Origin: an uncultured Candidatus Saccharibacteria bacterium
Lineage (GTDB): Bacteria; Patescibacteriota; Minisyncoccia; UBA6257; UBA11618
NCBI GenBank assembly: GCA_964373915.1
Contig: CAYJWP010000001.1
Location: 51,860 to 115,859, forward strand
Direction of reading: 5' to 3'
Length of the DNA stretch: 64,000 bases
This document shows positions 5,706-62,133 of this stretch, piece by piece (positions within the stretch are counted from its first letter, which is position 1; each line of letters begins with the position of its first letter). A model generated the notes under the pieces. It saw only the letters and a list, made by a program, of their open reading frames with translations. It did no database searches and was not told the origin of the DNA. Position numbers and translations under genes: made by a program.

Positions 5706-7493
5706 ATGGAAAACATTCGTAATTTTGTTATTATCGCTCATATTGACCACGGCAAGTCCACTCTAGCCGACCGCCTGCTGGAAATAACCGGCACGGTGGA
5801 CAAAAGGCATCTCCAACCTCAACATTTAGACCGATTAGAATCGGAAAGAGAAAGGGGAATTACCATTAAAATGGCGCCAGTGCGGATGATTTTTGGGGAT
5901 TATATACTGAATCTCATAGATACTCCCGGCCACAGTGATTTCGCTTATGAAGTTTCCCGAGCTCTGGCAGCCGTGGAGGGGGCGATATTGTTAGTTGATA
6001 TTTCCCAAGGCATTCAGGCGCAGACTTTGGCTAATTTTGAAACGGCTAAAAAAACTGGCCTTAAAATCATCGGCGCTGTTTCTAAAATAGACCTTAATTT
6101 GCCTCAAATAGAAGAAGTTGTTCAGTCCTTGGCCGAATTATTAGAAGTTAGAGAGGATGAAATTCTTAGAGTTTCCGGCAAAACGGGACAGGGCGTGGAA
6201 GAATTATTAGCAGCTGTTATTAAACGGTTTCCGCCGTCGCGCATTATTCCATCAAAAGAAGAAATTTCCCGCGCTCTCATTTTTGATTCTCTTTATGACG
6301 AACATAAGGGAGTAATTGCCTTTATAAGAATTTTTAACGGCAGTTTTAAAGGTAACGAGCAAATATCATTTCTAGCCACAAAATCAACCATTAAAGCTAA
6401 AGAGGTTGGATATTTTAATCCTCAATTGAAACCAGCTAAAGAATTATTCACGGGCGAGATTGGCTATATTGCCACTGGCCTTAAACAGCCGGAAAAAATA
6501 AAAATAGGTGATACAATTATTAATGTCAAAAATCAAAATCCAAATGTCAAAACTTTAGCCCTTCAGGGCTATAGAGAGCCTCAACCCGTAGTCTTTGTTT
6601 CTTTTTATCCCGAGGAAAATGATGACTATGATGATTTGAAAATTTCTTTGGCTAAATTAAAGCTTAACGACGCCTCCTTGTTTTTTGAGCCGGAAAGCAG
6701 CGAGCTTTTAGGCAGGGGATTTAAGGGAGGATTTTTAGGGAGATTGCACTTTGAGATTACCGCCGAACGGCTGGAAAAAGAATTTAATTTAAAAACAATC
6801 CAGAGCTTCCCCTCAGTTTCCTATCAGGTTAAGACCAGAAAGGGAGTGGAGGAAATCAGCAGTCCCAAGGATTTTCCCTATGATTATCTTGAAGTTTTAG
6901 AGCCAGTAATTCGGGTGGAAATCATTACCCCGCCTCAGTATTTAGGAGGCGTTTTGTCGCTCAAGCAGTTTTACAGAATAGGGGATTTTGAGACCAGAAA
7001 CATCGGCAATCGGGTAATTATTAAGGCCAAAATGCCCCTTGCCGACCTGATTAGCGATTTTGATGATAAGTTAAAATCCTTGTCAGAGGGCTACAGCTCT
7101 TTGAGTTATGAAATTATCGGTTATGAAAAAAGTAATCTGGCTAAGATGGAAATATTAATAGCCGGTCATCTTGTTCCCGGCCTGACCAGGATTATTCCAG
7201 CCGAGAGAATTGATCGCGAAGCCCGAACTACCGTGGGAAAACTTAAAGAATTTCTGCCTCGCCAGCAGTTCACTCAGGCGATACAGGCCGCCAGCGGCGG
7301 GCGGATTATTGCCCGTGAAACCATTGCTGCCCTTAAAAAAGATGTCACCGGCTACCTTTACGGCGGCGACCGCACCCGCAAGATGAAGCTTTGGAAGAAA
7401 CAGCAAAAAGGCAAGGCCAAACTTAAAGAACGGGCAGAATCTTCAGCTGTTCATATTCCGCCCTCTGTGTTTAAGGAGCTGCTGAAGAAATAA
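5706..7493 (+). CDS. lepA: translation elongation factor 4 (LepA)
   Basis: 595 aa. G-domain 'IIAHIDHGKSTLADRLLE' and a LepA-type C-terminal domain. Confidence 0.95.
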   Translation: MENIRNFVIIAHIDHGKSTLADRLLEITGTVDKRHLQPQHLDRLESERERGITIKMAPVRMIFGDYILNLIDTPGHSDFAYEVSRALAAVEGAILLVDISQGIQAQTLANFETAKKTGLKIIGAVSKIDLNLPQIEEVVQSLAELLEVREDEILRVSGKTGQGVEELLAAVIKRFPPSRIIPSKEEISRALIFDSLYDEHKGVIAFIRIFNGSFKGNEQISFLATKSTIKAKEVGYFNPQLKPAKELFTGEIGYIATGLKQPEKIKIGDTIINVKNQNPNVKTLALQGYREPQPVVFVSFYPEENDDYDDLKISLAKLKLNDASLFFEPESSELLGRGFKGGFLGRLHFEITAERLEKEFNLKTIQSFPSVSYQVKTRKGVEEISSPKDFPYDYLEVLEPVIRVEIITPPQYLGGVLSLKQFYRIGDFETRNIGNRVIIKAKMPLADLISDFDDKLKSLSEGYSSLSYEIIGYEKSNLAKMEILIAGHLVPGLTRIIPAERIDREARTTVGKLKEFLPRQQFTQAIQAASGGRIIARETIAALKKDVTGYLYGGDRTRKMKLWKKQQKGKAKLKERAESSAVHIPPSVFKELLKK

Positions 7494-7540: not shown

Positions 7541-7719
7541 CGGTCGGCTGGCCTCATCATGTCCAGCAGGTGATCCATCTCGCTAACGAGAGAGTCACTT
7601 TTTTGGATTAAATCGCTGTTCATTCGCTCGATTTGGCTGTGCTGGTCGGTATAAACCAATAACAGCCATCCGGCAGATGCAGCGAAAACGCAAGCCAACA
7701 GCACTAAAAGGTGTTTCAT
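7528..7719 (-). CDS. small signal-peptide/membrane protein (63 aa)
   Basis: Canonical minus-strand promoter (TTGACT-17-TATAAT at 7760-7787) and SD 'AAGGAG' 9 nt upstream of the ATG. Hydrophobic N-terminus 'LLVLLACVFAASAGWLLLV'. Confidence 0.5.
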   Translation of the reverse strand: MKHLLVLLACVFAASAGWLLLVYTDQHSQIERMNSDLIQKSDSLVSEMDHLLDMMRPADRPLN

Positions 7720-7734
7720 CGCTTTTTTCTCCTT

Positions 7735-7763
7735 TTCAAAAACACCACTCTGTCTGGTATTAT
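7735..7763 (+). promoter_or_regulatory. sigma70-like promoter (TTCAAA-17-TATTAT) for the 7800 gene
   Basis: Hexamers seen directly. Face-to-face with the minus-strand promoter, with overlapping -10 elements. Confidence 0.5.
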
Positions 7764-7787
7764 AGCATTATTATTATGATAAGTCAA
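7760..7787 (-). promoter_or_regulatory. sigma70 consensus promoter (TTGACT-17-TATAAT) for the 63-aa ORF
   Basis: Read on the minus strand as 'TTGACTtatcataataataatgcTATAAT'. Confidence 0.6.
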
Positions 7788-7799
7788 TATAAGCAAATA

Positions 7800-9239
7800 A
7801 TGGCGCTTTTAACGGCGGCGGGCATTTTTCTGCTTGTTGGAGCTTGGCTTTTAAATTCTTATACCGTTCAATCTCAAACCGAAGAGGAGCGGCTGATTAA
7901 TTCAATCAATTCCGCTATCAACGATCTCATTAATAATAGTGAAATAAGCCAAAAAATTAGGGATCTGGTCGGCAAGCCCACTGAAAACAAATCTTATTTT
8001 GATGATTACCTTCCTCCCCAGATATTTAATGACCTGATTAGCCATGGCCAAAAAGCTCAGGGTAGTTTTAGTATAATATTTGGCTTATTAAATGAAATTA
8101 GACAATTGTCTGGTAATTGCCAAACAGACGATGATAAAAAAAAGCTTATTAATAAAATTGAAGAACTCAACAACAACCTTTCTTTATTTATTGGTCATTT
8201 AACTAACTATCGCAAAGTTCTTGTGGAGGCGAGCTCCCTACTGGGCGATCCCGGTTTTTTTTCACCTTTTAAAAAGGGCTTTAAGGATAGGTTGAATCAA
8301 TCGGCTAGTGAATTAGGCCAAAGAATTACCGCTCTGCAAAAACGTCAAGCCGATCTTAATAGTCAAGTGCAATTGGGTAATCATATTAAATTAGCCGATA
8401 AATTATGTATAAAAAATGGCAATGGGCCTCCGCCTATTCCTCCGCCGGACAACGATATAAAAAATGAAGATGTCGCTGAGTGCGTTAAAGATTTTAACAA
8501 GCTTGCCGAATTAGCGAGAAAAATTTTATTCCACAGAACAACTCTTGACCAAAACACCTCAACTAATCTTAATTTTTTAATTACTAATCTGGAAGCCGCC
8601 GGCAGAAACTTCCCCTCACATTTTTCTTCATTACAGTCGGCTATTAATCGGCTAAATAAATTACTCTTATCGCCTTCTTTACGCCAAGTGGAAAAAAATG
8701 CTTTGGGGAGTTATTTAGCGTCTCTTAAACAATGCTTAAAAGTGACCAATGGAGAACAGCCTCCACCTCCTGCCGACAATGAAGATAGCGCCAGAATCAA
8801 AGAGTGCCACAAAAAGTACGACCGGCAATTGGTAGATTTTTTAGGGAAACTTCCCGCCTACTTTAGAATCCAGGCTCAAGAGCTAAAGAATAAGGCTGAT
8901 TCATTCCGGCAGGCCGCTTTTAAAGACCATAAAGATAGAATTAATCTGCTGGCGGACGGTCTTTTAAGTCTCGCTGACGAGATTGGGGGTTGGATTAAAG
9001 CTTGGGGAAGTAAGGTTCCTTTTAAAAATACCTACGAATTGATTGACGGCCTTATTGCCAAGTTTGAATACATTAAAGCCTACTATGAAGGCATAATAAA
9101 ATCTTTTCCTCTTCCTCCTAATCATCCTCAATCAATCGCTATGAAAAAGTATTATCAAAAAAAGATAGATTACGCCGATACAGTCATAAATGATCTTAAA
9201 AAATTAAAGGAAGACAAGCGAAAATGCGCCAACTGTTAG
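7800..9239 (+). CDS. hypothetical signal-anchored secreted protein, helical, with an internal duplicated Cys/Pro motif
   Basis: Start taken at ATG 7800 (MALLTAAGIFLLVGAWLL = TM/signal); the 7677 start is an ORF-caller extension. Duplicated module 'C..NG..PPP.PP.DN(D/E)...EC...'. Ends in 'KRKCANC'. Confidence 0.6.
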   Translation: MALLTAAGIFLLVGAWLLNSYTVQSQTEEERLINSINSAINDLINNSEISQKIRDLVGKPTENKSYFDDYLPPQIFNDLISHGQKAQGSFSIIFGLLNEIRQLSGNCQTDDDKKKLINKIEELNNNLSLFIGHLTNYRKVLVEASSLLGDPGFFSPFKKGFKDRLNQSASELGQRITALQKRQADLNSQVQLGNHIKLADKLCIKNGNGPPPIPPPDNDIKNEDVAECVKDFNKLAELARKILFHRTTLDQNTSTNLNFLITNLEAAGRNFPSHFSSLQSAINRLNKLLLSPSLRQVEKNALGSYLASLKQCLKVTNGEQPPPPADNEDSARIKECHKKYDRQLVDFLGKLPAYFRIQAQELKNKADSFRQAAFKDHKDRINLLADGLLSLADEIGGWIKAWGSKVPFKNTYELIDGLIAKFEYIKAYYEGIIKSFPLPPNHPQSIAMKKYYQKKIDYADTVINDLKKLKEDKRKCANC

Positions 9240-9262
9240 TTAACGTGTTATAATTAAAACAA

Positions 9263-10150
9263 GTGGATATTAAATTTTTAAAATGGTTTGCGGTAATCGT
9301 TGTTTTTGTTCTGGCTCTGACGGTGGCTTTTACAAATCTATCCGTTTTGGGACAAGGCGTACCCCGGCAAAATAAGTGCGTTTTGACAATACTTGAGGCG
9401 GTAAGCGTTCCTCCCGATCTCCAAAAATCCGAAGCAAAATTTCATATAAAATACGAGATAAAAAATCACAAAGACGAAGGCCTGTGGTCTATGCCTGCCA
9501 CAGAAATAAAATGGCCGAATATCATATCTCATTTCAAAAATAAATATCCGGATTGTGTTATAGACAATCAGGCGGCGACTGTCACCTATATTAAACCCAG
9601 AACAGGGCAAGATCCCCCCGACCCCCGTCACAGGGGCAATGTTATAATGAATTTTGATATTAAAGATCACAGGCCGGGGAAGAGAACTAGAAGAATTAGC
9701 ACTCCCGGAGGGCGGTCTTTAATTGATTTTTTAAATAAAGAATACCCGGGTTATACTATCAAACTTACCACTCCTGGCTTTAGAGGTCCGGCTTTAGCGC
9801 CTCCGGAAGATCAGGCGCCGGTTTGCCGCTCCATCGGCACCCTTTATACCAGCCCTAACTGGGAAAATGACCCCGACGTTTTTACCTGTCCCCCGTGCAG
9901 GCAATTAGAGAATGATTTAAATAGTTTTACTAAAAAGCTGATTGGAGATAATGCGGATCTTAGAGATTTGCTTGTAAAAACAGGCTTTGACTGGAAAAAA
10001 TTCGTTAACATCAAAATCGGGTTTCCTCCCGATGAACAAGGTATTCCCCATTTAAATGGTGTCAGCGATTCAGGAGTGATAGCATCTCAAATTAAAAAAG
10101 CTATGCAGGATTATATTGCAGAATTACGGCGGTGGAACACAAACAGATAA
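9263..10150 (+). CDS. hypothetical signal-anchored secreted protein (Cys-containing)
   Basis: N-terminal TM 'WFAVIVVFVLALTVAF'. Several Cys including 'FTCPPCRQLEN'. No recognisable domain. Confidence 0.55.
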   Translation: MDIKFLKWFAVIVVFVLALTVAFTNLSVLGQGVPRQNKCVLTILEAVSVPPDLQKSEAKFHIKYEIKNHKDEGLWSMPATEIKWPNIISHFKNKYPDCVIDNQAATVTYIKPRTGQDPPDPRHRGNVIMNFDIKDHRPGKRTRRISTPGGRSLIDFLNKEYPGYTIKLTTPGFRGPALAPPEDQAPVCRSIGTLYTSPNWENDPDVFTCPPCRQLENDLNSFTKKLIGDNADLRDLLVKTGFDWKKFVNIKIGFPPDEQGIPHLNGVSDSGVIASQIKKAMQDYIAELRRWNTNR

Positions 10151-10159
10151 AGAAAATAG

Positions 10160-11233
10160 ATGAGCAAAAATAATTTAAAATGGCTTGTAATTTTCGTGTC
10201 ATTGATTTTGGGGATGGCGATTGTTTTGCCTAAAACTAATTTTATTCTAGCCCAGTTTATTCCCAGTGGAACTATTGTCAGCCAAGAAAAAATACCCGGC
10301 ACTGACAATTATAAAGTAAAGATAGATTACGGCGGCATCACTATAGAAATAACGGCTTCGGCAAGAGAGTCGTCTAGGGAGTTTTTAGAAAACTTTTTAG
10401 GCGTCAAGTTAGTTGTTCCGCCAGCCTCTTCTCCGGAGCCAGTGCCCGCAAAGGATTGCCCGGAAACTTTTAAGATTGATTTAACCAATCGAATTAGGTT
10501 TGGGGTAAACGGAAAAAGAATTGACGAGGAAGTGGCTACATCAAATTTTCAATTATCACACGATAAAAATGACCATGAGGCCAGCCATGGCATCAATAGC
10601 ACGGCTCGCGCTATATACGCAGGCGTTCGTGAGGGTACCGGCGTGCATATTGGTTTTGACGAAAATGGCAAAGCCATTGTTACTTGGGTTGATGAGCCTA
10701 GGGGCAATATTTTGGGACTTATTGCTAGTAATGTTGTTCCCGATTTTTTTAAGAATCCGCCGGGTTTGATGAATCGTTACCGAACTTATTTAACAGGCGC
10801 CCGCCAGCGCAACATTGATGAAATCTCTAATTTGTTTGATGAATGGGGCGCTTACAATGCCGGAGGAGAAGCTCGTTTGAGAATGAGAATCAATGGGCAA
10901 AAAAAAGCTCTCGATGGAACGGATTTGAATCTGGCAAACATAATTGAGGGTCCGGCGGATTATATAATCATTGGTGGATCGGTTGCCCTTTATTTAAGAA
11001 ACAACGACCCAAGGTATTTTCAAAGCGCTCAATTTAAAAACTTTTTTAAATTCCAAATAGAAAAAAGCGCAACGCTTATCAATAAAGGCTTGGCAACCGG
11101 TGATATTTCTGATGCCGGCCATACTAATTTTATGTTAGATAATCTAAGAAAGAATCCCCAAGCGGCTAGGATTCGTCAAGTTTTAGTAGAACTTTACGGC
11201 CGCGACTGGACGCAAAGAGTCTTAGGTTTTTAA
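10160..11233 (+). CDS. hypothetical signal-anchored secreted protein
   Basis: N-terminal TM 'WLVIFVSLILGMAIVL'. 357 aa. No recognisable domain. Confidence 0.55.
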   Translation: MSKNNLKWLVIFVSLILGMAIVLPKTNFILAQFIPSGTIVSQEKIPGTDNYKVKIDYGGITIEITASARESSREFLENFLGVKLVVPPASSPEPVPAKDCPETFKIDLTNRIRFGVNGKRIDEEVATSNFQLSHDKNDHEASHGINSTARAIYAGVREGTGVHIGFDENGKAIVTWVDEPRGNILGLIASNVVPDFFKNPPGLMNRYRTYLTGARQRNIDEISNLFDEWGAYNAGGEARLRMRINGQKKALDGTDLNLANIIEGPADYIIIGGSVALYLRNNDPRYFQSAQFKNFFKFQIEKSATLINKGLATGDISDAGHTNFMLDNLRKNPQAARIRQVLVELYGRDWTQRVLGF

Positions 11234-11254
11234 AATTTATGTTAGCATAAACAT

Positions 11255-12397
11255 ATGCGGGAAAATAAAAAACATTTTTTATTTTTATTATTGCTTTTAG
11301 TAGCGTTCGTCTTAGTTTTATTTTTTATTTTATTTAGTTCCAAGTTACAGTTTTCTTATCAAGCCTTAAATGCAGCGCAAGAAGATCAAAATATATTAAG
11401 AGGAAGTCAATTTGTTAGCGTTGGCGACGGTTTAGGACAGGTTGTCAACGTTGTCAGGGGGGGCGGTGATCAATTTCCTAATGAATCTTACTATTGGCTA
11501 TACATTATTGCTCTATCACAATCATGCCAAAGGGAGGGGGGGTGGTTACCTTGGGTCTTTGGAGGAGGTAGCGGTTCTTCTTTAGAATCCAAACAACTCT
11601 TTGCAAGTATTTTTGATGTTCTATATAGTTTTTTTAATAAAACCAGTAAAGTTTTTGCTCTCCAGGGCGGCGGTTTTGGCCCCCCAGTTGTTGATCCACC
11701 CCCAGATCCGATTCCTATCCCGGCTCCTGCTCCATCTTCAAGAAGAGACATAATAACTATAGGAGTTGGTTTACAATATTGTTGGGGAGGAAGTGCTCCT
11801 ATTCGTCCATTTGTGGATTTTCTTTCGCGGACGGGAAGAAGGCTGTTGCCAATGATTATAGAAGTAGGGGGCAATCTTCGGTATTGGCCCATGGAGGGAA
11901 CTCGGGATGTAGCGTGGCTGGTCAAGCCAGTTGATTCATCAGCTGGCGCTGGGTTGAATATGATAATAGTTAGAGTTGACAAAAGCACACCAGTTAAATC
12001 ATCCAAACGTCCTGGATTTTTCCCAACACTGAAATCGGTAATACCTACCCCAGTTGATCCCCAAACGTTTGCTGATCCAGTAGGTGGTTCTATAACAATT
12101 AGGTTTCCTTTTGGAAAAAGAGATGGAGGTAGATATTTAGCAGAATTTAAGGAGCGTTGCGCTTTGGCTAATGAGCCACTTATAGAAAATGGCGTTGAAT
12201 ACTATAAACTGTCTAGTTTGCCAAATTTAAAAAAATACCGAATGAAAGACCTGCCAATAGGTAGTAAAGTTTACCAGAATGGAAAGGAGGTTGGCGTTTA
12301 TGTAGGCAACGGAAAAGTTTTACCATCCCGATACATTTTGCAGTTTTATAATGCTGTGGCAAAGCAAGTACCCAAGCCTCCTATTATTAGTAGATGA
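11255..12397 (+). CDS. hypothetical signal-anchored secreted protein with a Pro-rich linker
   Basis: N-terminal TM 'FLFLLLLLVAFVLVLFFILF', linker 'PPVVDPPPDPIPIPAPAPS', and a C-terminal 'VYQNGKEVGVYVGNGKVL' segment faintly reminiscent of NlpC/P60-type motifs (weak). Confidence 0.55.
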   Translation: MRENKKHFLFLLLLLVAFVLVLFFILFSSKLQFSYQALNAAQEDQNILRGSQFVSVGDGLGQVVNVVRGGGDQFPNESYYWLYIIALSQSCQREGGWLPWVFGGGSGSSLESKQLFASIFDVLYSFFNKTSKVFALQGGGFGPPVVDPPPDPIPIPAPAPSSRRDIITIGVGLQYCWGGSAPIRPFVDFLSRTGRRLLPMIIEVGGNLRYWPMEGTRDVAWLVKPVDSSAGAGLNMIIVRVDKSTPVKSSKRPGFFPTLKSVIPTPVDPQTFADPVGGSITIRFPFGKRDGGRYLAEFKERCALANEPLIENGVEYYKLSSLPNLKKYRMKDLPIGSKVYQNGKEVGVYVGNGKVLPSRYILQFYNAVAKQVPKPPIISR

Positions 12398-12660
12398 GGC
12401 TTGCTATCTCTTTAGTTACAATAATCAGTATAACCGTGATGGGCTTTCAGCTTTTCCGCCTTTATGGCCAGAAATCAAACTTAGAAAAAAAATTAGAAGC
12501 TATTAACTCCCAAATCAAGCCTTTAGTTGATGAAAATAAAAATGTTTTAGCCGACATCAATTATTTTCAGAATCCTAACAATCTTGAAAAAGAAGCGCGC
12601 GCGCAGTTAAACTATGTTCGGCCGGGAGAAAAGATGATTATCGTGATTCCTCAACCATGA
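12394..12660 (+). CDS. septum formation initiator family protein (FtsB/DivIC-like)
   Basis: 88 aa: TM helix, coiled coil, then 'EKEARAQLNYVRPGEKMIIV', the characteristic FtsB/DivIC C-terminal motif. Confidence 0.65.
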   Translation: MRLAISLVTIISITVMGFQLFRLYGQKSNLEKKLEAINSQIKPLVDENKNVLADINYFQNPNNLEKEARAQLNYVRPGEKMIIVIPQP

Positions 12661-13205
12661 AAAAGTTTTACGCGGCTTTTATTCTGATAATTCTTGCGGC
12701 GGCTGGTTTGGTTTTCCTTTTTCGCGCCGGTTGGCATCCTCTGGCTCTAGTTAACTCTCGCCTTGTCTGGGCGTGGCAATTTGAGAAAGAATATCAGTCG
12801 GCTCTCAAGTATTATGACAAACTTTCTTCTGTCTATAAGCTTCCCAAGCCGGAGGGGGATATAAAATTGGCAGTGCTTGATAAATTAATAGAAAAAATCA
12901 TAATATCAGAAAGTTTGAAAGATATATTTGGCGAAGAGGGCCAGGTATTAGTAAGCCAAAAAGTGTCAACTTCCTTAAAAAATACCAATCTAGAAGCCGC
13001 GGTTTCTTCGTTGCTTAGCATTGATTTTAAAGATTTTCAGGAAATGGTGCTTATCCCTCAAGCCGAAAAAGAGATAATTGAAGAAAAATTAAAAAGTGAA
13101 AGCCGCGACTTCTCTAATTGGCTGAAAAACAAAAAAAATCAGGCAAAAGTTTATCTTTTTACTAACGAATTTAATTGGATTAAAGGGGGGATAAATAGAA
13201 AGTAA
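12657..13205 (+). CDS. hypothetical membrane-anchored protein
   Basis: 182-aa ORF with an N-terminal TM helix. Translationally coupled to the upstream gene (ATGA overlap). Confidence 0.5.
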   Translation: MKKFYAAFILIILAAAGLVFLFRAGWHPLALVNSRLVWAWQFEKEYQSALKYYDKLSSVYKLPKPEGDIKLAVLDKLIEKIIISESLKDIFGEEGQVLVSQKVSTSLKNTNLEAAVSSLLSIDFKDFQEMVLIPQAEKEIIEEKLKSESRDFSNWLKNKKNQAKVYLFTNEFNWIKGGINRK

Positions 13206-13208: not shown

Positions 13209-13282
13209 GCGAGATTAGTACAGTGGCAGTACGCTTGCTTCCCAAGCAAGAGACGCGAGTTCGATTCTCGTATCTCGCTCCA
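13209..13282 (+). tRNA. tRNA-Gly (anticodon CCC)
   Basis: Cloverleaf folded by hand. Acceptor GCGAGAT/ATCTCGC, D-arm GTAC-AGTGGCA-GTAC, anticodon loop TTCCCAA, T-arm GCGAG-TTCGATT-CTCGT, discriminator U, encoded CCA. Confidence 0.9.
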
Positions 13283-13285
13283 AGC

Positions 13286-13313
13286 AAAAGGGGGCTGACA
13301 GCCCCCTTTTTTT
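13286..13313 (+). terminator. rho-independent terminator after tRNA-Gly
   Basis: 'AAAGGGGGCTGACAGCCCCCTTTTTTT'. Confidence 0.75.
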
Positions 13314-13336
13314 GTGCTATAATTCAATCTATTCTA

Positions 13337-13408
13337 GCCGGAGTAGCTCAGTGGCAGAGCGGTGCTTTCGTAAAGCAAAGATCGCGAGTTCGATTCTCGC
13401 CTCCGGCT
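13337..13408 (+). tRNA. tRNA-Thr (anticodon CGT)
   Basis: Acceptor GCCGGAG/CTCCGGC, D-arm GCTC-AGTGGCA-GAGC, anticodon loop TTCGTAA, T-arm GCGAG-TTCGATT-CTCGC. CCA not encoded. Confidence 0.85.
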
Positions 13409-13435
13409 CAAAATTCCTACGGAATTTTGCAATAT

Positions 13436-14158
13436 ATGCGTCCACTATCAGATAAATACGACCAAAACAACGCCCATCTTTCTGTTCATGCCGGTGCTGG
13501 CGGAGACGATGCTAAGGATTGGGCCGGCATGCTTTTTAAAATGTATTTCAAATATGCCGGACGCAGGGGTTGGCAAACTATGGCGATTGATGATTTAACT
13601 ATGGATATCAAAGGAGATTATGCTTATGGAACTTTAAAAAAGGAAGCTGGCGTCCATCGGCTAGTGCGCATCTCTCCTTTTTCTACAAAAAAACTGCGCC
13701 ACACCTCATTTGCTTTAGTGGAAGTCCTGCCGGAGCTTCCGGAAATAGAAAGAAAAAAATTGGTTATCCCGGAAGATGATTTAAGGGTGGAAATGTTTCG
13801 CTCCAGCGGACCGGGCGGGCAAAATGTAAATAAGCGGGAAACCGCCGTCAGGGTCATCCACATGCCTAGCGGTTTGAGCGCCGCTTCGCAGGTAGAGCGC
13901 TCGCAAGCGCAAAATAAGGAAAAGGCGGTTAATCTGCTCAAAGCTCGCCTCATTAAGGTTATGGAGGAAAGGCGCATGCAGGAATTAAGTAATTTACAAA
14001 CTAAAATTGTGCCGGAGTGGGGTAGCCAGATTCGCTCTTATGTCCTGCACCCCTACAAGCAGGTTAAAGACCATCGCACCAAGGCTGTTAGCCACAATCC
14101 GGACAATGTTTTAGACGGTGACTTGGATAAGTTTATTGAATCGGAACTGGAAATTTGA
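13436..14158 (+). CDS. prfB: peptide chain release factor 2, N-terminally truncated (domains 2-4 only; domain 1 absent)
   Basis: 'HAGAGGDDAKDW', codon-recognition tripeptide 'SPF', 'SGPGGQNVNKRETAVRVIHMPSG' (GGQ), 'WGSQIRSYVLHPY'. The first ATG after tRNA-Thr sits about 15 aa before the 'HAGAGG' block. TTG 13427 is an alternative start. The 13223 ORF extension runs through the tRNAs and is spurious. Confidence 0.8.
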   Translation: MRPLSDKYDQNNAHLSVHAGAGGDDAKDWAGMLFKMYFKYAGRRGWQTMAIDDLTMDIKGDYAYGTLKKEAGVHRLVRISPFSTKKLRHTSFALVEVLPELPEIERKKLVIPEDDLRVEMFRSSGPGGQNVNKRETAVRVIHMPSGLSAASQVERSQAQNKEKAVNLLKARLIKVMEERRMQELSNLQTKIVPEWGSQIRSYVLHPYKQVKDHRTKAVSHNPDNVLDGDLDKFIESELEI

Positions 14159-14183: not shown

Positions 14184-14864
14184 ATGATAAATTTCATCAA
14201 TGTTTCTAAAGTCTACTCCAATAAATCCACTGCTCTAAATAATGTCAGTTTTAAGATAGACCCCAAGGAATTTGTAACCATTGTCGGTAAATCAGGGGCG
14301 GGTAAATCAACTATTATTAAACTTATTATTGGAGAAGAAAAACCTACCAGAGGCAAGGTTTTGTTTGCCAACCAGGAGGTGAATAAATTAACTTACAAAG
14401 AATTGCCTCTGTTAAGGAAAAGAATAGGTATTATTTTCCAAGACTTTCGCCTTTTACCGGCAAAAAATGCTCATGAGAATGTTGCTTTTGCGATGGAGGT
14501 CAGCGGTAAGTCGCAATTAGAAATTAATGAAGTAGTGCCTCAAATTTTAGATATGGTCGGATTGGGGGATAAAGCCGATCGCTTTCCCCATGAACTATCT
14601 GGAGGGGAGAGGCAGAGAGTGGCTATTGCTAGGGCGATGGTCAATCGGCCGGCGTTGATTATTGCCGATGAACCGACTGGCAATCTTGACCCAAGCAATA
14701 CGTGGGAGATAGTGGATATTCTCCTGAAAATTAATGAATTAGGCACCACGGTTATTCTAGCCACCCACAACAAGGATATTATTAACAACTTAGGCAGGCG
14801 CGTTATCAGCCTGGATGATGGTAAAATGATAAGAGACGAGAAAAAAGGCAGATATATTTTGTAA
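14184..14864 (+). CDS. ftsE: cell division ATP-binding protein FtsE
   Basis: ABC ATPase with Walker A 'GKSGAGKST', signature 'LSGGERQRVAIARA', and the FtsE-like 'MINFINVSKVY' N-terminus. Conserved prfB-ftsE-ftsX synteny. Confidence 0.9.
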   Translation: MINFINVSKVYSNKSTALNNVSFKIDPKEFVTIVGKSGAGKSTIIKLIIGEEKPTRGKVLFANQEVNKLTYKELPLLRKRIGIIFQDFRLLPAKNAHENVAFAMEVSGKSQLEINEVVPQILDMVGLGDKADRFPHELSGGERQRVAIARAMVNRPALIIADEPTGNLDPSNTWEIVDILLKINELGTTVILATHNKDIINNLGRRVISLDDGKMIRDEKKGRYIL

Positions 14865-15775
14865 TGGCCACTACTCTTTTTAGAATAATTAAATATGGCT
14901 GGCATAATTTTCGCCGCAATAGTTGGCTTTCTGTTGCCACTATTAGCATTTTACTTCTAACACTAATAGTTTTTCAGGGCTTGATTATTTTTCGGGTTAT
15001 CACTGGCGCGGCTATTGAAAGCTTAAAAGACAAAATAGATGTCAGTATATATTTTGCCACTGATGTTAGCGAGGAAAATATTTTAGAAATTCAAAAAAAG
15101 ATAGAGGTGCAAGACAAAGTTAAAAAAGTTGAATATATTTCCAGGGAAAAGGCTCTTGGAATATTTAAAGAAAAACATAAAGACGATCCCACTATTACTC
15201 AAGCTCTCCAAGAACTTGAGGACAATCCTCTTTCTGCCTCTTTAAATATTAAAGCCAACGAACCCAGCGATTACCCCGAGATCGCCTCGTTTTTAGACCA
15301 GCAAAAAAGCTGGCAGCCATTAATGGAAAAAGTTACTTATCGCCAAAACCAGCTGGTTATTGAGCGATTAGGCAAGATAGTGGATACCACCGAGAAATTA
15401 GGCTTAGCTTTGACTTTTTTCCTATCTTTAGCGGCTATTTTAGTAACTTTCAACACTATAAGCTTAGCTATCTACTCTAATCGTGAAGAAGTTAAAATTA
15501 TGCGATTAGTCGGCTCTTCTAACAGGTTAATAGTTGGCCCTTTTATAGTAACTGGCATTATCTACAGCGCCATCGCGGCCGTTTTAAGCCAGCTGATTAT
15601 CTGGCCCGTGGTTGTCACCACTTCTCCCTATCTCAAATTTTTTCTTTCAGAAACCGATTTAGCCTCCTATTACATGGATAATTTTTGGAAGCTTTTAGCC
15701 TACCAACTTTTATTTGGAGCTATTCTTGGCGCCGTCTCTGGCAAAATAGCTATTAGAAGGTATTTAAAAACTTAG
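14864..15775 (+). CDS. ftsX: cell division permease FtsX
   Basis: FtsX topology: TM1, large periplasmic loop, three C-terminal TMs. Immediately downstream of ftsE. Confidence 0.85.
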   Translation: MATTLFRIIKYGWHNFRRNSWLSVATISILLLTLIVFQGLIIFRVITGAAIESLKDKIDVSIYFATDVSEENILEIQKKIEVQDKVKKVEYISREKALGIFKEKHKDDPTITQALQELEDNPLSASLNIKANEPSDYPEIASFLDQQKSWQPLMEKVTYRQNQLVIERLGKIVDTTEKLGLALTFFLSLAAILVTFNTISLAIYSNREEVKIMRLVGSSNRLIVGPFIVTGIIYSAIAAVLSQLIIWPVVVTTSPYLKFFLSETDLASYYMDNFWKLLAYQLLFGAILGAVSGKIAIRRYLKT

Positions 15776-15795: not shown

Positions 15796-17238
15796 CTAAA
15801 ACCAACCCAGCAGGAATTGAGCTACCAACCCTAAAAATTCTTTTGATTCTATTCTCTTTGATTGAGGTTGTTGCAACTGCATCTGTAATTCTATAGAACG
15901 GAAATCTATATTTTCAGGAATTAATGACCTGAATTGTTCCGGTATTTGTGTAGGCGCTCCTTCAAGCAGGAAATTATTTAATCCTTCAAGGCTGGGCGGA
16001 GGAGGCCCCTGATAGTCCTTATCCGGAAATGAGTCTTGTCTTCCCGGAAACTCTTCCTGTCTGCTCGGGAAAGACCTGTCTTCTAAGCCCGGCGGCGTAA
16101 AATCAGCAAAACAACCTCGCATAATTTCCGGCATTTTAGTCCTCATTTCGAAAGGATTAAAATCAGGGCTATTCAGCAACTCTTCCAGTTTGGGCCCGAC
16201 GCACTCTGTAATCCCCGGCGGAGCATTTCCAGTTTCTTCATTAATCCGGCGGCGCACCTCCTCTTTTATTCGTCCACTTTCTCCTTTGGGGATGATTTTA
16301 TTAAAATTAAAATCTGGATTTTCTTTTTTAATCTCCTCAAAGAATTGTTCCGCTAATTCCGGCTTTGCATCAAAAACTTTTTCGCACTCCTGCCGGTTGC
16401 GACAACCTGTTTTTTCTTTGATTTTACGGGCAAACCGCGCTTCTTCTTGGCCGATAATCCCGTGCTCTATAGCAAAGGCGAAACAGACTTCCTCGTTGGC
16501 CGGATTGTCACAGTGTTTTTCACAAGCCCTTCCCCGACAACCTCCGGGACCCACTCCGCCGGTCTTTTTGACGATGCTGGCCTCTTGTTCTGTCATAAAA
16601 CCGGCGGCCACGCCGAACTTTATGCACTCATCCATTCTCTCCGGTTTAAAATCTCCGCCATCCGGCCCGCCGGCGCCAAAACAATAAGTCTCGCACTCCT
16701 CTTTATTGCGGCAACTGCCGGGAGTTTTAACGCCTCTTGCTAGAGCATCCCTGATTTTTTTCGCCTCTTCTAACTCTTGCCTGTCCATCACGTCATACTT
16801 TTCAGCGTAAGCCACACACTCATTAATATTGGCGACATCATCACAATAAGCGCGGCATTCATCAAAGCCTTGGCATCCGCCCGGCCCAGCGCCGCCTCTT
16901 AGCGATTGCGATAATTTCTCTACCTCGCTAGCCTCCTTGTTAGCGATAGGCCCCTCTAATAAGTTGTGTTTTTTAGCGAAAGCAAAACAAGCGGCAAAAT
17001 TATCGGGCTGGTCGCAATATAATCGGCACTCCTTTTCATTTTTACAGCCGCCTAATTCCTCTACGGGATAAACAATATCGTCCTTGGTGGCGGCTCCTGC
17101 CAGCGGCAACATCAGGAACAGAAAAAACAAAACTGCTAAAGTCGTAATAATTTTATTGTCCAGCTTATTACTCAAAGGGATTTTGATAAGTGTTTGAAAA
17201 TGGATTGGCTTTTTCCACCGGATTGACATCTTGGACAT
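15796..17238 (-). CDS. secreted cysteine-rich tandem-repeat protein (five C-x5/6-C-x3-C-x7/9-C modules) with a Pro-rich C-terminus
   Basis: Signal/TM 'IITTLAVLFFLFLMLPLAGAA'. Repeats 'GGCKNEKECRLYCDQPDNFAACFAFAKKH', 'GGCQGFDECRAYCDDVANINECVAYAEKY', 'GSCRNKEECETYCFGAGG...', 'GGCRGRACEKHCDNPANEEVCFAFAIEHG', 'TGCRNRQECEKVF'. Confidence 0.6.
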   Translation of the reverse strand: MSKMSIRWKKPIHFQTLIKIPLSNKLDNKIITTLAVLFFLFLMLPLAGAATKDDIVYPVEELGGCKNEKECRLYCDQPDNFAACFAFAKKHNLLEGPIANKEASEVEKLSQSLRGGAGPGGCQGFDECRAYCDDVANINECVAYAEKYDVMDRQELEEAKKIRDALARGVKTPGSCRNKEECETYCFGAGGPDGGDFKPERMDECIKFGVAAGFMTEQEASIVKKTGGVGPGGCRGRACEKHCDNPANEEVCFAFAIEHGIIGQEEARFARKIKEKTGCRNRQECEKVFDAKPELAEQFFEEIKKENPDFNFNKIIPKGESGRIKEEVRRRINEETGNAPPGITECVGPKLEELLNSPDFNPFEMRTKMPEIMRGCFADFTPPGLEDRSFPSRQEEFPGRQDSFPDKDYQGPPPPSLEGLNNFLLEGAPTQIPEQFRSLIPENIDFRSIELQMQLQQPQSKRIESKEFLGLVAQFLLGWF

Positions 17239-17452: not shown

Positions 17453-18592
17453 GTGGATAAGTTTGCTCGGTACGACATCTTTTTTTACGGAGTGGCAATG
17501 TTTCTAGCCGGAGTTTTGCTTTCTAGTTTAGGCATAAGTTTTTGGATTATTGCCGGCCTGGTAATTTTTTTAGCTTTAGCTTCCCGAATGTCATCTTTAA
17601 GCCCGTTGCTGATATTAGTTTTAGCCGGCTCTCTTTATTACTCATGGCGCATCTCTATGCCTCTGGAAATCTCTTTTGGCAAAGAAATTTTTGGATGGCT
17701 TTTAAACATTAAAGAGGGGATTATTGAGGCGCATCGGCGGCTCTTAGGCTCGGAGCAAGCGGCTTTTTTATCCGGCATTACCATCGGCCATCGTTATGGA
17801 TTTTCTCAAAATTTTCTGGAACGGCTTTCTTTAAGCGGCACCCGCCACGTAGTAGTGCTTTCGGGCTCTAATCTTACAATTCTCATTCTTATAATTATGC
17901 GGCTCCGCAGCTCTTTTCTTTCAAAAAAGTTTGCTTTTGCCCTTTCTTTTTTAACCGTTCTGGCCCTTGTGGCTATGACCGGCTTTGAAGTTTCCGCCGT
18001 GCGCGCCTCCTTAATGGCTTTTGTTTTCGGTATAGCCACTCAAAGCGAGCGCCTTTACAGCCCCCGTAATTCTATAGCTCTGGCAGGTTTAATTTTAATT
18101 CTCGTCAATCCTCAAAACCTTGTTTTTGATATCGGCTTCCAGCTTTCCTTTATGGCTATTCTTGGAGTAGCCTATATTTTACCTGCTTTAAAAAACGCTC
18201 TGCGGATAAAAACTTTTGGCGGGCTTGATTGGCGTGAAGCGGCCCTTGGAACAATCGCCGCCCAAACAGCAGTCGCGCCTATTTTAATCGCTAACTTCTC
18301 TAACTTCACTTTGACATCCTTTATCGCTAACGCTCTTATTTTGGCGGTGGTGCCGCCAACAATGATTGTTGGTTTTATTCTGGCGCTAGCCTACTGGCTG
18401 TTTTATCCGGCGGCGATTGTTTTAAGCTGGCTGGCGTCTTTCTTGCTCGGTTATCAGATTTTTGTTATAAATATTTTTTCTCGGATTTATCTGCCCTTTA
18501 ATCCTGATTTAGGATTTTTAGGAATCGCTATTTATTACGCCGTTGTTTTTATTTTTATCGCCAAGTTTTATGGAAAAAGAGCCGAATTATAA
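17453..18592 (+). CDS. comEC: ComEC/Rec2 DNA-internalization competence protein, membrane competence domain
   Basis: Multi-TM protein. 'LSGITIGHRYGFSQNFLERLSLSGTRHVVVLSGSNLTIL' matches the ComEC competence-domain signature. Confidence 0.8.
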   Translation: MDKFARYDIFFYGVAMFLAGVLLSSLGISFWIIAGLVIFLALASRMSSLSPLLILVLAGSLYYSWRISMPLEISFGKEIFGWLLNIKEGIIEAHRRLLGSEQAAFLSGITIGHRYGFSQNFLERLSLSGTRHVVVLSGSNLTILILIIMRLRSSFLSKKFAFALSFLTVLALVAMTGFEVSAVRASLMAFVFGIATQSERLYSPRNSIALAGLILILVNPQNLVFDIGFQLSFMAILGVAYILPALKNALRIKTFGGLDWREAALGTIAAQTAVAPILIANFSNFTLTSFIANALILAVVPPTMIVGFILALAYWLFYPAAIVLSWLASFLLGYQIFVINIFSRIYLPFNPDLGFLGIAIYYAVVFIFIAKFYGKRAEL

Positions 18593-19403
18593 AATTTATT
18601 TTTATTTTACTCTTATTATCCTTGCCGGCTTTAACCTATGGTTGTGGCGAGCCGTATTTTTTTCTAGTGGAGACATCAAACCGGCGGTTTATTTTTTTAA
18701 TGTAGGGCAAGGCGACAGCCAACTGATTGCCTTGCCGCCGGTTAACATTCTCATTGATGGAGGGAGAGGAAAAAGAGTTTTAGGAGAATTGGACAAAGTC
18801 TTCAGCGAGTTCAATGGCAAATATATTGATTTAGTAATTGCTACCCATGCCGATATTGACCATTTTGGCGGTCTCAGGGAGGTTGTGAAAAATTATCAAG
18901 TAGGCGCTTTTTTATTTAACGGCAAAGCCAGCAATAATTCCGCTTATTTAGAATTAGTATCGTTAGTAAATAGGGCGGGTATTCCCATTATCAATCTAGC
19001 CGCCAAAGATAAAATAAAATACAACAATGATTATCTAGCCGTTCTTTCTCCGGAAGCTAAAGAAATTTTTTATAACGATGATAATAATTCCAGCTTGGTT
19101 TTAATGTTGAACGCGGGCGGAGAAAAAGCCCTTTTTACTGGAGATATCAGTCTTAAAACTGAGGATAAATTAGCGAGCCGTTACGATTTAACCGCTGATA
19201 TTCTCAAGGTTTCCCATCACGGTTCCAAAAACTCATCCGGCGCTAATTTCTTAAATGATGTTTTGCCTAGAATTAGCGTTATCGGAGTTGGCAGAAACAG
19301 CTACGGCCATCCCCATCCTCTAACTATTGAACGTCTGCAAAAAGCCGGCTCTAAAATCTTTAGAACCGACACGGACGGCGCCATTAAAATTGTTTTAGAT
19401 TAA
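18570..19403 (+). CDS. ComEC C-terminal metallo-beta-lactamase domain protein (separate gene)
   Basis: MBL motifs 'VGQGDS', 'ATHADIDHFGG' (HxHxDH), 'KVSHHGS'. Start taken at ATG 18570 (MEKEPNY...). Overlaps the upstream comEC by about 23 nt. Confidence 0.8.
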   Translation: MEKEPNYKIYFYFTLIILAGFNLWLWRAVFFSSGDIKPAVYFFNVGQGDSQLIALPPVNILIDGGRGKRVLGELDKVFSEFNGKYIDLVIATHADIDHFGGLREVVKNYQVGAFLFNGKASNNSAYLELVSLVNRAGIPIINLAAKDKIKYNNDYLAVLSPEAKEIFYNDDNNSSLVLMLNAGGEKALFTGDISLKTEDKLASRYDLTADILKVSHHGSKNSSGANFLNDVLPRISVIGVGRNSYGHPHPLTIERLQKAGSKIFRTDTDGAIKIVLD

Positions 19404-58051: not shown

Positions 58052-59332
58052 CTATTGAATACTTTCGTATTCCCGCATTACCAACTGGGAATCTATCTGC
58101 TTCATAGACTCCAGCGCCACCGCTACCACAATCAGCAAGGCCGTACCGCCGATGGTCAAGGTGGCGATGCCGGTGACAATTTGGGTGACAATGGGCAAGA
58201 CTGCCACAATACCCAAAAAGACGGCGCCAAATAAGGTGATTCTATTAACAATTTTAGACAAAAACTCTTTCGTCGGGTCGCCAGGACGAATCCCCGGAAT
58301 AAATCCTCCGGAACGCTGTAAGTTATTGGAGATTTCTTTAGGGTCAAAAGTGACGGCTGTATAAAAATAAGTAAACAAAACCACTAAAGCAAAATATATC
58401 AGGCCATAGAAAACTTGATTATTAAATACTAAAGACACCCAGGAGTTTAACTTTGCTCCAAAACCAGGAGAAACAGCCGCCGCTATCTGCGCTAAAAATT
58501 GGGGAAAAAGCAAAATAGAGACCGCAAAGATTATAGGAATTACTCCGGCTTGGTTGACTCTTAAGGGCAGATAGCTGGAAACACCGCCGTACATTTTCGT
58601 GCCTCTGATTCTTTTAGCATAAGAGACGGGAATTTTGCGCTCACCTTCGGTAACGAACACTACGCCCGCAATAACTACTATGCTTAGTAATAGAAAAGCT
58701 ATATAAGTAGGTAAAACAGCCGGATTATAGGATAAAAAATTGGTCCGCACAATTTGCGGCAGTCCAGCCAAAATACCGGCAAAAATTATTAAAGATACGC
58801 CGTTGCCTATCTTTTGTTCGCTAATCAATTCTCCCAGCCAAACAAGAATCATGGTGCCGGCGGTAGCGATAATGACGCTAATTATAATATTGGAAGTCCT
58901 AAAATCAGTAAAAACCCCCTGCTGGTTGAGCAGTGTCATAAAACCGTAGCCCTGCAGACCGGCTAAGGGCACGGTCAGATAGCGGGAGTAGCGATTAAAT
59001 TTTGCTCTTCCTTCAGCTCCCTCTTCATAATACATAGCCTTAAGGGCGGGAAAAATCATAGTTAAAAGCTGCATGACAATAGTAGCGGTGATATAAGGGC
59101 CGACTCCCAACATCATAATGGATAAATTATCTAAGGCGCCGCCGGAAAATATGTTTAAAAATCCCAAAAGCTGATTGGAAGCAAAAAGATCCTTTAACCG
59201 ATCGACATCTATCCCGGGAATAGGAATAGCCGCCATCAGCCGGAAAACAACCAGCAAGGCAGCAACAATCAAAACCTTCTTGCGCAAGTCGGGAATTTTA
59301 AAAACTTGTAAAAATTTATTCAACATTTTCAA
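58052..59332 (-). CDS. secY: preprotein translocase subunit SecY
   Basis: Ten-TM SecY. Downstream of rplO. Confidence 0.95.
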   Translation of the reverse strand: MKMLNKFLQVFKIPDLRKKVLIVAALLVVFRLMAAIPIPGIDVDRLKDLFASNQLLGFLNIFSGGALDNLSIMMLGVGPYITATIVMQLLTMIFPALKAMYYEEGAEGRAKFNRYSRYLTVPLAGLQGYGFMTLLNQQGVFTDFRTSNIIISVIIATAGTMILVWLGELISEQKIGNGVSLIIFAGILAGLPQIVRTNFLSYNPAVLPTYIAFLLLSIVVIAGVVFVTEGERKIPVSYAKRIRGTKMYGGVSSYLPLRVNQAGVIPIIFAVSILLFPQFLAQIAAAVSPGFGAKLNSWVSLVFNNQVFYGLIYFALVVLFTYFYTAVTFDPKEISNNLQRSGGFIPGIRPGDPTKEFLSKIVNRITLFGAVFLGIVAVLPIVTQIVTGIATLTIGGTALLIVVAVALESMKQIDSQLVMREYESIQ

Positions 59333-59762
59333 AAACTTTACCTCCGGCCGCTTCTATCTTTTTTTGCGCCTCCTTTGAAATACGCAACTGCTGGCCGCCT
59401 GACAACTTTAATTCCACTGTAAAAGCTTTTTTTAACTCACCGCTGCCTAATATTTTAACGCTTCTGTCTTTAACAAAACCGGCCTCTCTCAAAGTTTTAA
59501 TATTGATAGTATTTCCTTTGATTTTCGATAAATAATTAACATTAACGGCTAAAGGCTTCACTTGAAAAGGCTTATTTTTATAACCTCTTAATTTTGGCAG
59601 ACGAGAAATCAACTCATAAATAGCCGGTTTAATCCTCCTGCCAGCATGAGCCTTCTGTCCCTTTTGGCCACGGCCTGAATAAGTGCCCCGCTTGCCTCCT
59701 CGGCCGACACGAGCGCCGCTTCTCTTTCTTTTATTTAATATTTTTATCTGATGTAATTGCAT
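59316..59762 (-). CDS. rplO: 50S ribosomal protein L15
   Basis: 'KRKRSGARVGRGGKRGTYSGRGQKGQKA'. Confidence 0.9.
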   Translation of the reverse strand: MQLHQIKILNKRKRSGARVGRGGKRGTYSGRGQKGQKAHAGRRIKPAIYELISRLPKLRGYKNKPFQVKPLAVNVNYLSKIKGNTINIKTLREAGFVKDRSVKILGSGELKKAFTVELKLSGGQQLRISKEAQKKIEAAGGKVFENVE

Positions 59763-59766
59763 ATAG

Positions 59767-60276
59767 TTACTCTTCGTCTTCGTTTCGGCTAGCCGGCTGT
59801 TGTTTAACTTCCTTTACCATCACTCCCTCCGATTTAATGTTTTTCAGCGCCTCAATAACCGCCATAGCATTAGTAAGCTTGTTAGAAGTAGTTCCTAAAT
59901 TTTTAGCGGTGCAATCTTTGACGCCCGCCAAAAACAAAACGGCTCTTGCCGAACCGCCGGCGCGCAGGCCGTGGCCGGGAATAGCCGGTTTTAATTTAAT
60001 TTTAGCGGCGCTGAACTTAGCGTCTACCTCATGGGCAATAGTGCCATTTTTTAGATTAACCCTAATTATATTTTTTTTGGCGGCAGAACGCGCTTTATCA
60101 ATAGCTTGAGCAACATCCAAACCTTTGGCAATGCCAACGCCCACTTGACCTTTCTCATCGCCCACCACCACCGTGGCGCGAAAACGAAAACGCTTGCCCC
60201 CGGCAACCACTCTAGTCACCCGACGAATTTCCAAAACACGCTCCTCAAATCCGTCTCCTTTTTTTACTATTCTCAT
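59767..60276 (-). CDS. rpsE: 30S ribosomal protein S5
   Basis: 'VTRVVAGGKRFRFRATVVVGD', 'GAGIIAG'-type motif 'GHGLRAGG'. Confidence 0.9.
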   Translation of the reverse strand: MRIVKKGDGFEERVLEIRRVTRVVAGGKRFRFRATVVVGDEKGQVGVGIAKGLDVAQAIDKARSAAKKNIIRVNLKNGTIAHEVDAKFSAAKIKLKPAIPGHGLRAGGSARAVLFLAGVKDCTAKNLGTTSNKLTNAMAVIEALKNIKSEGVMVKEVKQQPASRNEDEE

Positions 60277-60291
60277 AGATATGAAAAATGA

Positions 60292-60660
60292 TTAAAATTT
60301 TAAACCGCTCTGGCGAAAACCATCGGCTACCGCCTCCACCCGGCCGTGATATTTGTAGGCGCCCTTGTCAAAAATCAGAGCACTAACTCCAATTTTTTTT
60401 ACCTTTTCCGCCATCAACTCCCCCAATTTTCTGGCCCTGTCAGTTTTGCTTAAATGTTCCTTGGCATCGCCATTAATTAAATCCTTAGTTGAGCCGGCCA
60501 GCAAAGTCTTCTGATTTTTATCATCAATCAGTTGAACGTATATAAACTTATTGCTTCTGAAAATTGAAAGCCTGGGCCTTTCTTTAGTGCCAAAAATCTT
60601 GGCTCTCGCCCTAGCCCCTCTTAATCTCCTTTGAAAATTTAATCTTTTTTGATTTCTCAT
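60292..60660 (-). CDS. rplR: 50S ribosomal protein L18
   Basis: 'ERPRLSIFRSNKFIYVQLIDD'. Confidence 0.9.
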   Translation of the reverse strand: MRNQKRLNFQRRLRGARARAKIFGTKERPRLSIFRSNKFIYVQLIDDKNQKTLLAGSTKDLINGDAKEHLSKTDRARKLGELMAEKVKKIGVSALIFDKGAYKYHGRVEAVADGFRQSGLKF

Positions 60661-60687
60661 GTTGAATTTTAAGTATTTAATATTTTA

Positions 60688-61233: not shown

Positions 61234-61558
61234 AAAAACAACAGAGAAAAGGCTATCACATTTAAATAAATTAGGCAATAAAAATCCCTCCAACTTTATC
61301 CGAGTGAATATATGTTTGGCTGATCCGCCCGCTGGCTCCGCCAGCTGGCGGAGAAAACAACGAAGCGAAGCGAAGATTTTCTTTAGTAAATTAAACTGTT
61401 TGAGTTCCAATCCGCCGAAGGCGGAGTGGGCGAGTTTTTAAATTTACTTAGAAAAGCGAGCGTAGCGAGTTGGCTTTCTATCAGACAAACATCATGAAGG
61501 AGGGTAAGGTTGGAGGGATCTGAAGAATGAGGAAATAGTTTTGATTAAATTTTTATTC
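61234..61558 (-). other. about 325-bp non-coding, structured insert between rpsH and rplF in the spc operon
   Basis: Contains (CGAAG)x3 and 'GCGAGCGTAGCGAG' repeats. Contains hairpins 'CCGCCAGCTGGCGG' and 'CCGCC-TTCG-GCGG' (tetraloop). Confidence 0.6.
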
Positions 61559-61939: not shown

Positions 61940-61942
61940 AAT

Positions 61943-62128: not shown

Positions 62129-62133
62129 AAAAA

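Follow-up and report, generated by a model that had tools for sequence, protein, structure and literature searches.

The window analyzed here, a stretch of 64,000 nucleotides of DNA deposited as uncultured Candidatus Saccharibacteria (contig CAYJWP010000001.1), carries on its plus strand an ATG-to-TGA open reading frame (ORF; 13436..14158) for prfB, encoding a 240-aa release factor 2 (RF2) that consists of domains 2, 3 and 4 only. Sequence comparisons indicate that this gene is probably a prfB ortholog which has lost the whole domain-1 segment and which would still provide a working UGA/UAA release factor. The elements reading UGA and UAA (SPF, RHTSF and the GGxD of the alpha-5 tip), the GGQ motif and the switch-loop tryptophan are conserved in the short RF2 proteins. 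The host group is Parcubacteria/Paceibacteria-type Candidate Phyla Radiation (CPR), with Harrisonbacteria- and Jorgensenbacteria-like members.

The first-pass annotation of the window had described an RF2 ORF retaining SPF, GGQ and the C-terminal core but no domain 1, and Pfam, NCBIfam and PDB alignments all bear out this description. The Pfam RF-1 family (PF00472) matches the 240-aa protein with 118 bits over profile positions 4-116 of 116, whereas the PCRF profile is covered at positions 92-194 of 194 only. The NCBIfam prfB model (TIGR00020) yields 321.2 bits over model positions 109-352 of 353, and the prfA model scores ∼125 bits below this value (195 bits). In phmmer comparisons with the PDB, residues 8-238 correspond to residues 106-344 of Thermus thermophilus RF2 and residues 2-239 to residues 117-362 of Escherichia coli RF2, with 42-48% identity to the Thermus and E. 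coli proteins over the common region. It follows from these PDB and profile alignments that ∼105-116 N-terminal residues, all of them from domain 1, are missing, and that the protein starts exactly at the domain 1/2 boundary. The initial estimate of ∼125 missing residues was thus close: the alignments give the smaller figure, and the frameshift-type relatives described below have 117-137 residues more than the window RF2. In addition, the domain-2 loop of the window protein carries an extra deletion of ∼10 residues, which is common to full-length sister sequences.

Within the gene, SPF is encoded at 13673-13681 and GGQ at 13814-13822 (plus strand, window coordinates), and the product contains intact RHTSF, GAGGDDA (with the alpha-5 tip GGxD) and switch-loop WGxQIRSY motifs. 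In an alignment of 45 sequences, comprising the window protein, 34 of the 120 best database clusters and 10 longer representatives, S80, P81, F82, R88, T90, S91 and F92 are invariant, as are G127, G128, Q129, W195, G196, R200 and Y202, and H89 is nearly so (at least 90%). An AlphaFold2 model built on this alignment has a predicted local distance difference test score (pLDDT) of 75.7, and its best superposition is with free compact RF2 (template modeling score 0.74 for 2ihr and 0.75 for 1gqe). All short homologs share an initial M(F)xxLxGKYD that lines up with ATG 13436, and the closest ones read MxPLxxKYD; of the two starts considered in the first-pass annotation, the homologous N-termini therefore favor ATG 13436, and TTG 13427 is disfavored. 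A 311-aa ORF reaching back to GTG 13223 (database entry P0001) runs across both upstream tRNA genes and is a gene-calling artifact. As had been suggested from ftsB and prfB themselves, TGA is still a stop in this window: the stops of 79 crude window ORFs are TAA in 52, TAG in 14 and TGA in 13 cases.

The short architecture is widespread among relatives. Our protein search covered a space of ∼5.8 billion, and the figures given here rest on the best 120 clusters, which are 66-74% identical to the window RF2 and nearly all 237-255 aa long. Their source labels read "peptide chain release factor-like protein", "PCRF domain-containing protein" or "release factor 2", and they derive from metagenome-assembled genomes of Patescibacteria, Parcubacteria, Harrisonbacteria and Nomurabacteria. 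Entries of ∼260 aa among the 50%-identity representatives were not counted, as they may be mis-called second ORFs of frameshift genes. In a complementary scan of GTDB with one genome per species, the best 80 loci (designated L followed by a number), from 80 assemblies and down to ∼49% identity, were retained, and their ORFs were re-derived with tRNAs and frameshift sites taken into account. Three length classes were thereby obtained.

The short class (228-247 aa) comprises 26 species plus the window and is 57-70% identical to the window protein. The stub class, found in about 34 species, is 288-307 aa long (one member 320 aa) and keeps a ∼50-residue remnant of domain 1, starting ∼15 residues before the DFW motif; the frameshift site is absent. 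Stub loci, for example L054:635-1510, L031, L041 and L073, are of Nomurabacteria/Paceibacterota type and form a separate clade, and the stub looks like an independent partial reduction of domain 1. The full-length class (336-402 aa), from more distant Parcubacteria, includes 11 loci with a CTT TGA C +1 frameshift ∼25 codons into ORF1 (L082:2497-2566, L056:4463-4535, L035, L080, L032, L050, L040, L016, L022, L049 and L064). The CUU UGA C +1 frameshift is common in the prfB family, though not universal. The frameshift region of L082 carries MINFKEKITNLTEGLQTMKDRL*, and its fused product reaches 421 bits on the prfB model, above the cut-off of 370. Two further full-length relatives, from an exhaustive search of the 50%-identity representatives, are P0122, which is 57-58% identical to the window RF2, and the full-length sister P0121 (347 aa, 64% identical), which scores 371 bits on prfB and already has the domain-2 loop deletion. 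As a side observation, a conserved (A/U)GGAC motif precedes CTT TGA C in the 11 frameshift loci, although Shine-Dalgarno use seems absent in the window. Alignment with orthologs thus shows the truncated form to be conserved in related CPR genomes, and there is good support for the proposal of a lineage-specific minimal RF2, since the short form recurs across over 100 clusters and 26 species-level genomes, its motifs intact and its genomic slot unchanged.

This slot is defined by the gene order prfB-ftsE-ftsX, whose conservation had been noted for the window and which is kept in nearly all 80 loci of any length class; lepA lies upstream in the short and frameshift classes alike. Because this synteny and the upstream lepA are shared, the short genes are positional orthologs of ordinary prfB. 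In a neighbor-joining tree of 226 core columns, all short proteins group together among the Parcubacteria RF2s, with P0121/P0122 as their sister and the frameshift proteins L016/L022 as the next branch, and the stub class falls into its own clade (bootstrap 90/100 with up to two intruders allowed). On this topology, our best estimate is a single loss of domain 1 in the short class rather than two parallel losses.

The sequence upstream of the window gene is densely occupied. tRNA-Gly(CCC) (13209..13282, plus strand; Rfam RF00005, 68.3 bits) is followed by an intrinsic terminator (13286..13310 and a T run to 13316, plus strand) with an 11-bp stem containing 6 GC pairs, and tRNA-Thr(CGT) lies at 13337..13409 on the same strand (67.1 bits), without a completely encoded CCA. 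Both tRNAs were called by ARAGORN, so that, together with the Rfam scores and a terminator scan, the initial recognition of this tRNA-terminator-tRNA array is confirmed. Between the tRNAs, a promoter scan predicts a sigma-70-type promoter (CTGACA-17 nt-TGcTATAAT; 13295..13323, plus strand) with 11/12 matches plus an extended -10, ending 13 nt before tRNA-Thr and being the sole good promoter found there. With the upstream 230 nt taken up by tRNAs, terminator and promoter, there is indeed no space for domain 1 or a frameshift leader, as originally stated, and no +1 frameshift motif was found at the window prfB. The 26-nt spacer between tRNA-Thr and prfB is predicted by RNA folding to form an AU-rich 9-bp hairpin, CAAAAUUCC-UAC-GGAAUUUUG (13409..13429, plus strand), at which the terminator scan called no terminator.

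tRNA-Thr(CGT) stands directly upstream of prfB, on the same strand, in all three length classes, and for about 29 loci the gap to the prfB start falls between -1 and 30 nt. It measures 0, 3 and 6 nt in the short-class loci L029, L012 and L004, 0 nt in the stub loci L054 and L073, and 0, 1 and 6 nt in the full-length frameshift loci L056, L082 and L040. As the tRNA also abuts full-length prfB in the last three loci, the tRNA-prfB junction predates the truncation. For the same reason, the suggestion that the gene was clipped by tRNA insertion is not supported, and we reject it. The event is best described as a loss of ∼330 coding nucleotides downstream of a start that was kept, with an ancestral tRNA junction, as judged from these comparisons. 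Among related loci, an ORF of at least 100 aa begins within 30 nt after tRNA-Thr(CGT) in 30/62 genes. tRNA-Gly(CCC) precedes tRNA-Thr in 19 related loci and, as in the window, L001, L004 and L058 have a perfect TATAAT ahead of tRNA-Thr, at a distance of 6-14 nt.

Several further observations concern this junction. The segment 13286-13323 is very compact, with the -35 CTGACA lying within the loop and descending stem of the tRNA-Gly terminator. In L001, L004, L007, L012 and L015 the inter-tRNA space is filled by an ORF of 192-613 aa that begins 2-6 nt after tRNA-Gly(CCC); the product in L001 (L001:9226-9878) has no Pfam match. In L021 (9974) and L026 (9989) the A of the prfB ATG is the last A of the CCA encoded by tRNA-Thr(CGT), and one transcript cannot give both an intact tRNA and the AUG unless the CCA is repaired or the precursor is translated. 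Shine-Dalgarno sequences were found at 8/75 window starts compared to a 10.9% background, that is, with no enrichment, and initiation in this organism seems largely Shine-Dalgarno-independent (75 ORF starts). An SD-less or leaderless start as a peculiarity of prfB is accordingly a weakened proposal, given this window-wide pattern and the tight junctions seen at other tRNAs.

Some of these data weigh against the interpretation of the window gene as a functional, once-truncated prfB with its own tRNA-linked expression. First, the 240-aa protein remains, at 321 bits, under the curated whole-protein cut-off of the prfB model (TIGR00020, 370 bits); this can be attributed to the absence of domain 1, since the shortfall equals the missing domain. 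Second, bootstrap support is 57/100 for the short clade and 51/100 for its sister relation to P0121/P0122, and given this modest support a single loss is not established. Third, tight tRNA-ORF junctions also occur at other tRNAs (12/121), which weakens the idea of a special tRNA-prfB junction. Finally, a tRNA-prfB co-transcript is likely to be the expression unit, but both this unit and the 5′ end of the mRNA are deduced from sequence only.

Four alternative explanations were considered. The gene could be a decaying or redundant remnant, the genome having a full-length prfB at another site for termination at UGA. The window represents 64 kb of a 152.7-kb contig, and the protein fails the prfB cut-off (321 versus 370 bits), both of which leave space for this explanation. 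A remnant, however, would hardly show one architecture across over 100 clusters and 26 species-level genomes, without variation in any catalytic or decoding residue, nor fill the orthologous prfB-ftsE-ftsX slot. Furthermore, no genome gave a second RF2 locus among the best 80 GTDB matches (down to ∼49% identity), and neither the 64-kb window nor ∼1.2 Mb of sequence flanking the loci of relatives contained a second release factor homolog. We therefore regard redundancy as very unlikely.

It is similarly improbable that the protein has been re-purposed as a specialized PrfH/ArfB-type hydrolase for rescue or quality control and is not a general terminator. PrfH, ArfB and ICT1 likewise have no domain 1, and weak sub-threshold matches to two of these families were obtained. 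The PrfH model (TIGR03072) gives 84.9 bits on the window RF2, compared to a cut-off of 166.65, and the ArfB model (NF006718; a ∼140-aa GGQ domain plus basic C-terminal tail) gives 47.4 bits, compared to a cut-off of 100, over residues 107-141 only. These values stand against 321 bits on prfB, and the SPF and RHTSF motifs are kept. In addition, the upstream genes are tRNAs, a SurA_N-like gene and ftsB, with no RtcB-type partner, the gene occupies the housekeeping prfB position, and the UGA stops of this organism need an RF2.

A split gene, in which a separate small gene would supply a domain 1 that associates with the 240-aa core, has still less to recommend it. A tblastn search with 21 domain-1 segments against the window and ±10 kb of the 26 short-form loci returned only non-significant short matches (E ≥ 0.018), most of them covering the domain 1/2 junction, which the short protein itself includes, and the rest scattered by chance. 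Likewise, a domain-1 hidden Markov model (HMM) detected nothing at E ≤ 10 among six-frame ORFs of the window and ±10 kb of the short-form loci. Since ∼50 residues of domain 1 are still fused to the protein in a related clade, progressive loss rather than fission is indicated. Lastly, although frameshift prfB genes are often mis-called N-terminally short, as is probably true of some ∼260-aa database entries, an artifact in which mis-assembly, a sequencing indel or an unrecognized upstream frameshift hides a longer gene is hardly credible, since two tRNA genes with high scores, together with a terminator and a promoter, take up the 230 nt before the gene, the arrangement is seen again in independent assemblies of many studies, and spacers of 0-26 nt leave no space for ∼110 codons.

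Returning to the preferred reading, a working RF2 without domain 1, published work on release factors suggests how such a protein might operate. Contacts with RF3 and the L11 stalk are made through domain 1, which is described as the least conserved release factor domain (PMC1586002). As that article summarizes Mora et al. 2003, codon-specific release in vitro does not require domain 1, whereas the interplay with RF3 does, and truncated RF1 functions in vivo. Moreover, dissociation of RF2 without RF3 is reported to be at least ten times faster than that of RF1 (PMC12646239). By analogy, the short RF2 would bind the A site at UGA or UAA and hydrolyze peptidyl-tRNA as an ordinary RF2 does, would make no contact with the L11/L7-L12 stalk or RF3 owing to the missing domain 1, and would have to leave the ribosome spontaneously, as E. 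coli RF2 already can. Since the deletion took out the frameshift site, the prfB autoregulatory loop would be gone, and RF2 synthesis would no longer be self-regulated through the efficiency of UGA termination.

Regarding expression, prfB can hardly own a promoter because the spacer is so small. Transcription would most likely start from the near-consensus promoter before tRNA-Thr(CGT) and yield a tRNA-prfB(-ftsEX) co-transcript, from which 3′ processing of the tRNA would release a prfB mRNA with a 26-nt leader and no Shine-Dalgarno sequence. Combining these elements, we tentatively propose a scenario, which may well prove incorrect in one or more parts, whereby this Parcubacteria group terminates at UGA and UAA with a three-domain RF2, without RF3 or stalk contact or frameshift feedback, the stub clade being an intermediate in a deletion series and the tRNA-Thr(CGT)-prfB co-transcript giving rise to a near-leaderless mRNA. 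If so, the latter would be a bacterial analog of mitochondrial tRNA punctuation. If the short RF2 acts without RF3, prfC is predicted to be absent from these genomes. RF1 in the short-form genomes could be shortened or not; the prediction is uncertain because RF1 leans more on RF3.

In the literature searched, including a broad survey of release factor evolution (PMC6514570), a study of small CPR ribosomes (PMC9297842) and a screen for alternative genetic codes (PMC8629427), no canonical RF2 without domain 1 is described in CPR or other bacteria. Short RF2 sequences are nevertheless public, under non-committal names, because they score below the prfB HMM threshold. For the same reason, automated surveys that rely on this threshold could wrongly score RF2 as absent from such genomes and suspect UGA reassignment. 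In our view, the short form is a genuine reduction of a universal translation factor, both conserved and open to mechanistic interpretation. The degree of surprise is moderate, because the dispensability of domain 1 is known from engineered proteins and domain-1-less paralogs of the PrfH/ArfB type exist. So far, this dispensability has been demonstrated only with engineered E. coli proteins; if our interpretation is correct, a free-living or episymbiotic lineage runs general termination with neither the contact to RF3 and the stalk nor the autoregulatory prfB frameshift. Full-length, stub and absent forms of domain 1 would then provide comparative material on the contributions of domain 1 and RF3.

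The remaining neighborhood is summarized here for orientation (all on the plus strand unless stated otherwise). lepA (5706-7493) precedes the ftsB/divIC-like gene (12394..12660; Pfam DivIC, 1.1e-10), which ends in TGA and is also found upstream in L001 and other loci. Between lepA and ftsB, four consecutive large ORFs (7677-12397; 520, 295, 357 and 380 aa) have no Pfam match. A gene for a SurA_N-like membrane-anchored protein follows (12657..13205); it has no Pfam match in the window, its positional homolog in L001 has SurA_N_2/3, and its synteny is kept in relatives, as determined by tblastn. Downstream of prfB lie ftsE, encoding the ABC ATPase (14184..14864; Pfam ABC_tran, 5e-39), and ftsX (14864..15775; Pfam FtsX_ECD and FtsX), the syntenic partners mentioned above.

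Farther away, a minus-strand ORF (15796-17238) encodes a 480-aa protein of Cys-rich repeats (GGCxxxxECxxYCDxPxNxxxCFAFA-like) without a Pfam match. ComEC (17453-19403, plus strand) is present as two overlapping ORFs, with a Competence domain (17453-18592) and a metallo-beta-lactamase domain (18543-19403), which could mean that the gene is split or frameshifted, or that the sequence contains an error. An spc-type ribosomal operon (59316-63801, minus strand) encodes L29, S17, L14, L24, L5, S8, L6, L18, S5, L15, SecY, Adk and Map. S5 (59767-60276) is directly followed by L15 (59316-59762) with no L30 between them, as is typical of CPR. The L6 ORF (60688-61410, minus strand) is 239 aa long, with the second L6 domain at residues 149-221 and an N-terminus ∼60 residues longer than usual, perhaps owing to a true extension or to a wrongly called start.

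Compared with known systems, the window protein is closest to canonical RF2 (TIGR00020; 1gqe, 2ihr), with which it has in common domains 2, 3 and 4, SPF, RHTSF, GGQ and the switch-loop tryptophan, and whose ortholog it is by tree and synteny. It differs in having neither domain 1 (∼105-135 aa) nor the +1 frameshift site, and in the ∼10-residue deletion of the domain-2 loop. A similar architecture has been engineered: E. coli RF1 and RF2 with domain 1 removed retain codon-specific release in vitro (Mora et al. 2003, as summarized in PMC1586002). These, however, were made in the laboratory and show growth defects when the host has RF3, whereas the window form is natural and conserved across species.

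Among natural proteins, the class-I release factor homolog PrfH (RF-H), which is paired with RtcB2, is without domain 1 like the window RF2. In contrast to the latter, which has canonical motifs and no such partner, PrfH shows altered decoding motifs, an RtcB-like ligase partner and a role in ribosome repair or rescue. ArfB, ICT1 and C12orf65 also combine a GGQ domain with the absence of domain 1, yet they are devoid of the codon-reading domains 2 and 4 and act codon-independently, while the window RF2 keeps both domains.

With respect to gene arrangement, units in which tRNA and mRNA are co-transcribed include the E. coli thrU-tyrU-glyT-thrT-tufB operon and the "tRNA punctuation" of mitochondria. 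In both, as here, a protein gene comes straight after a tRNA with no space for a promoter of its own. The junction described in this study, known from sequence alone, is far tighter than that of the tufB operon, with a gap of 0-26 nt and, in L021 and L026, a start codon that overlaps the CCA of the tRNA.

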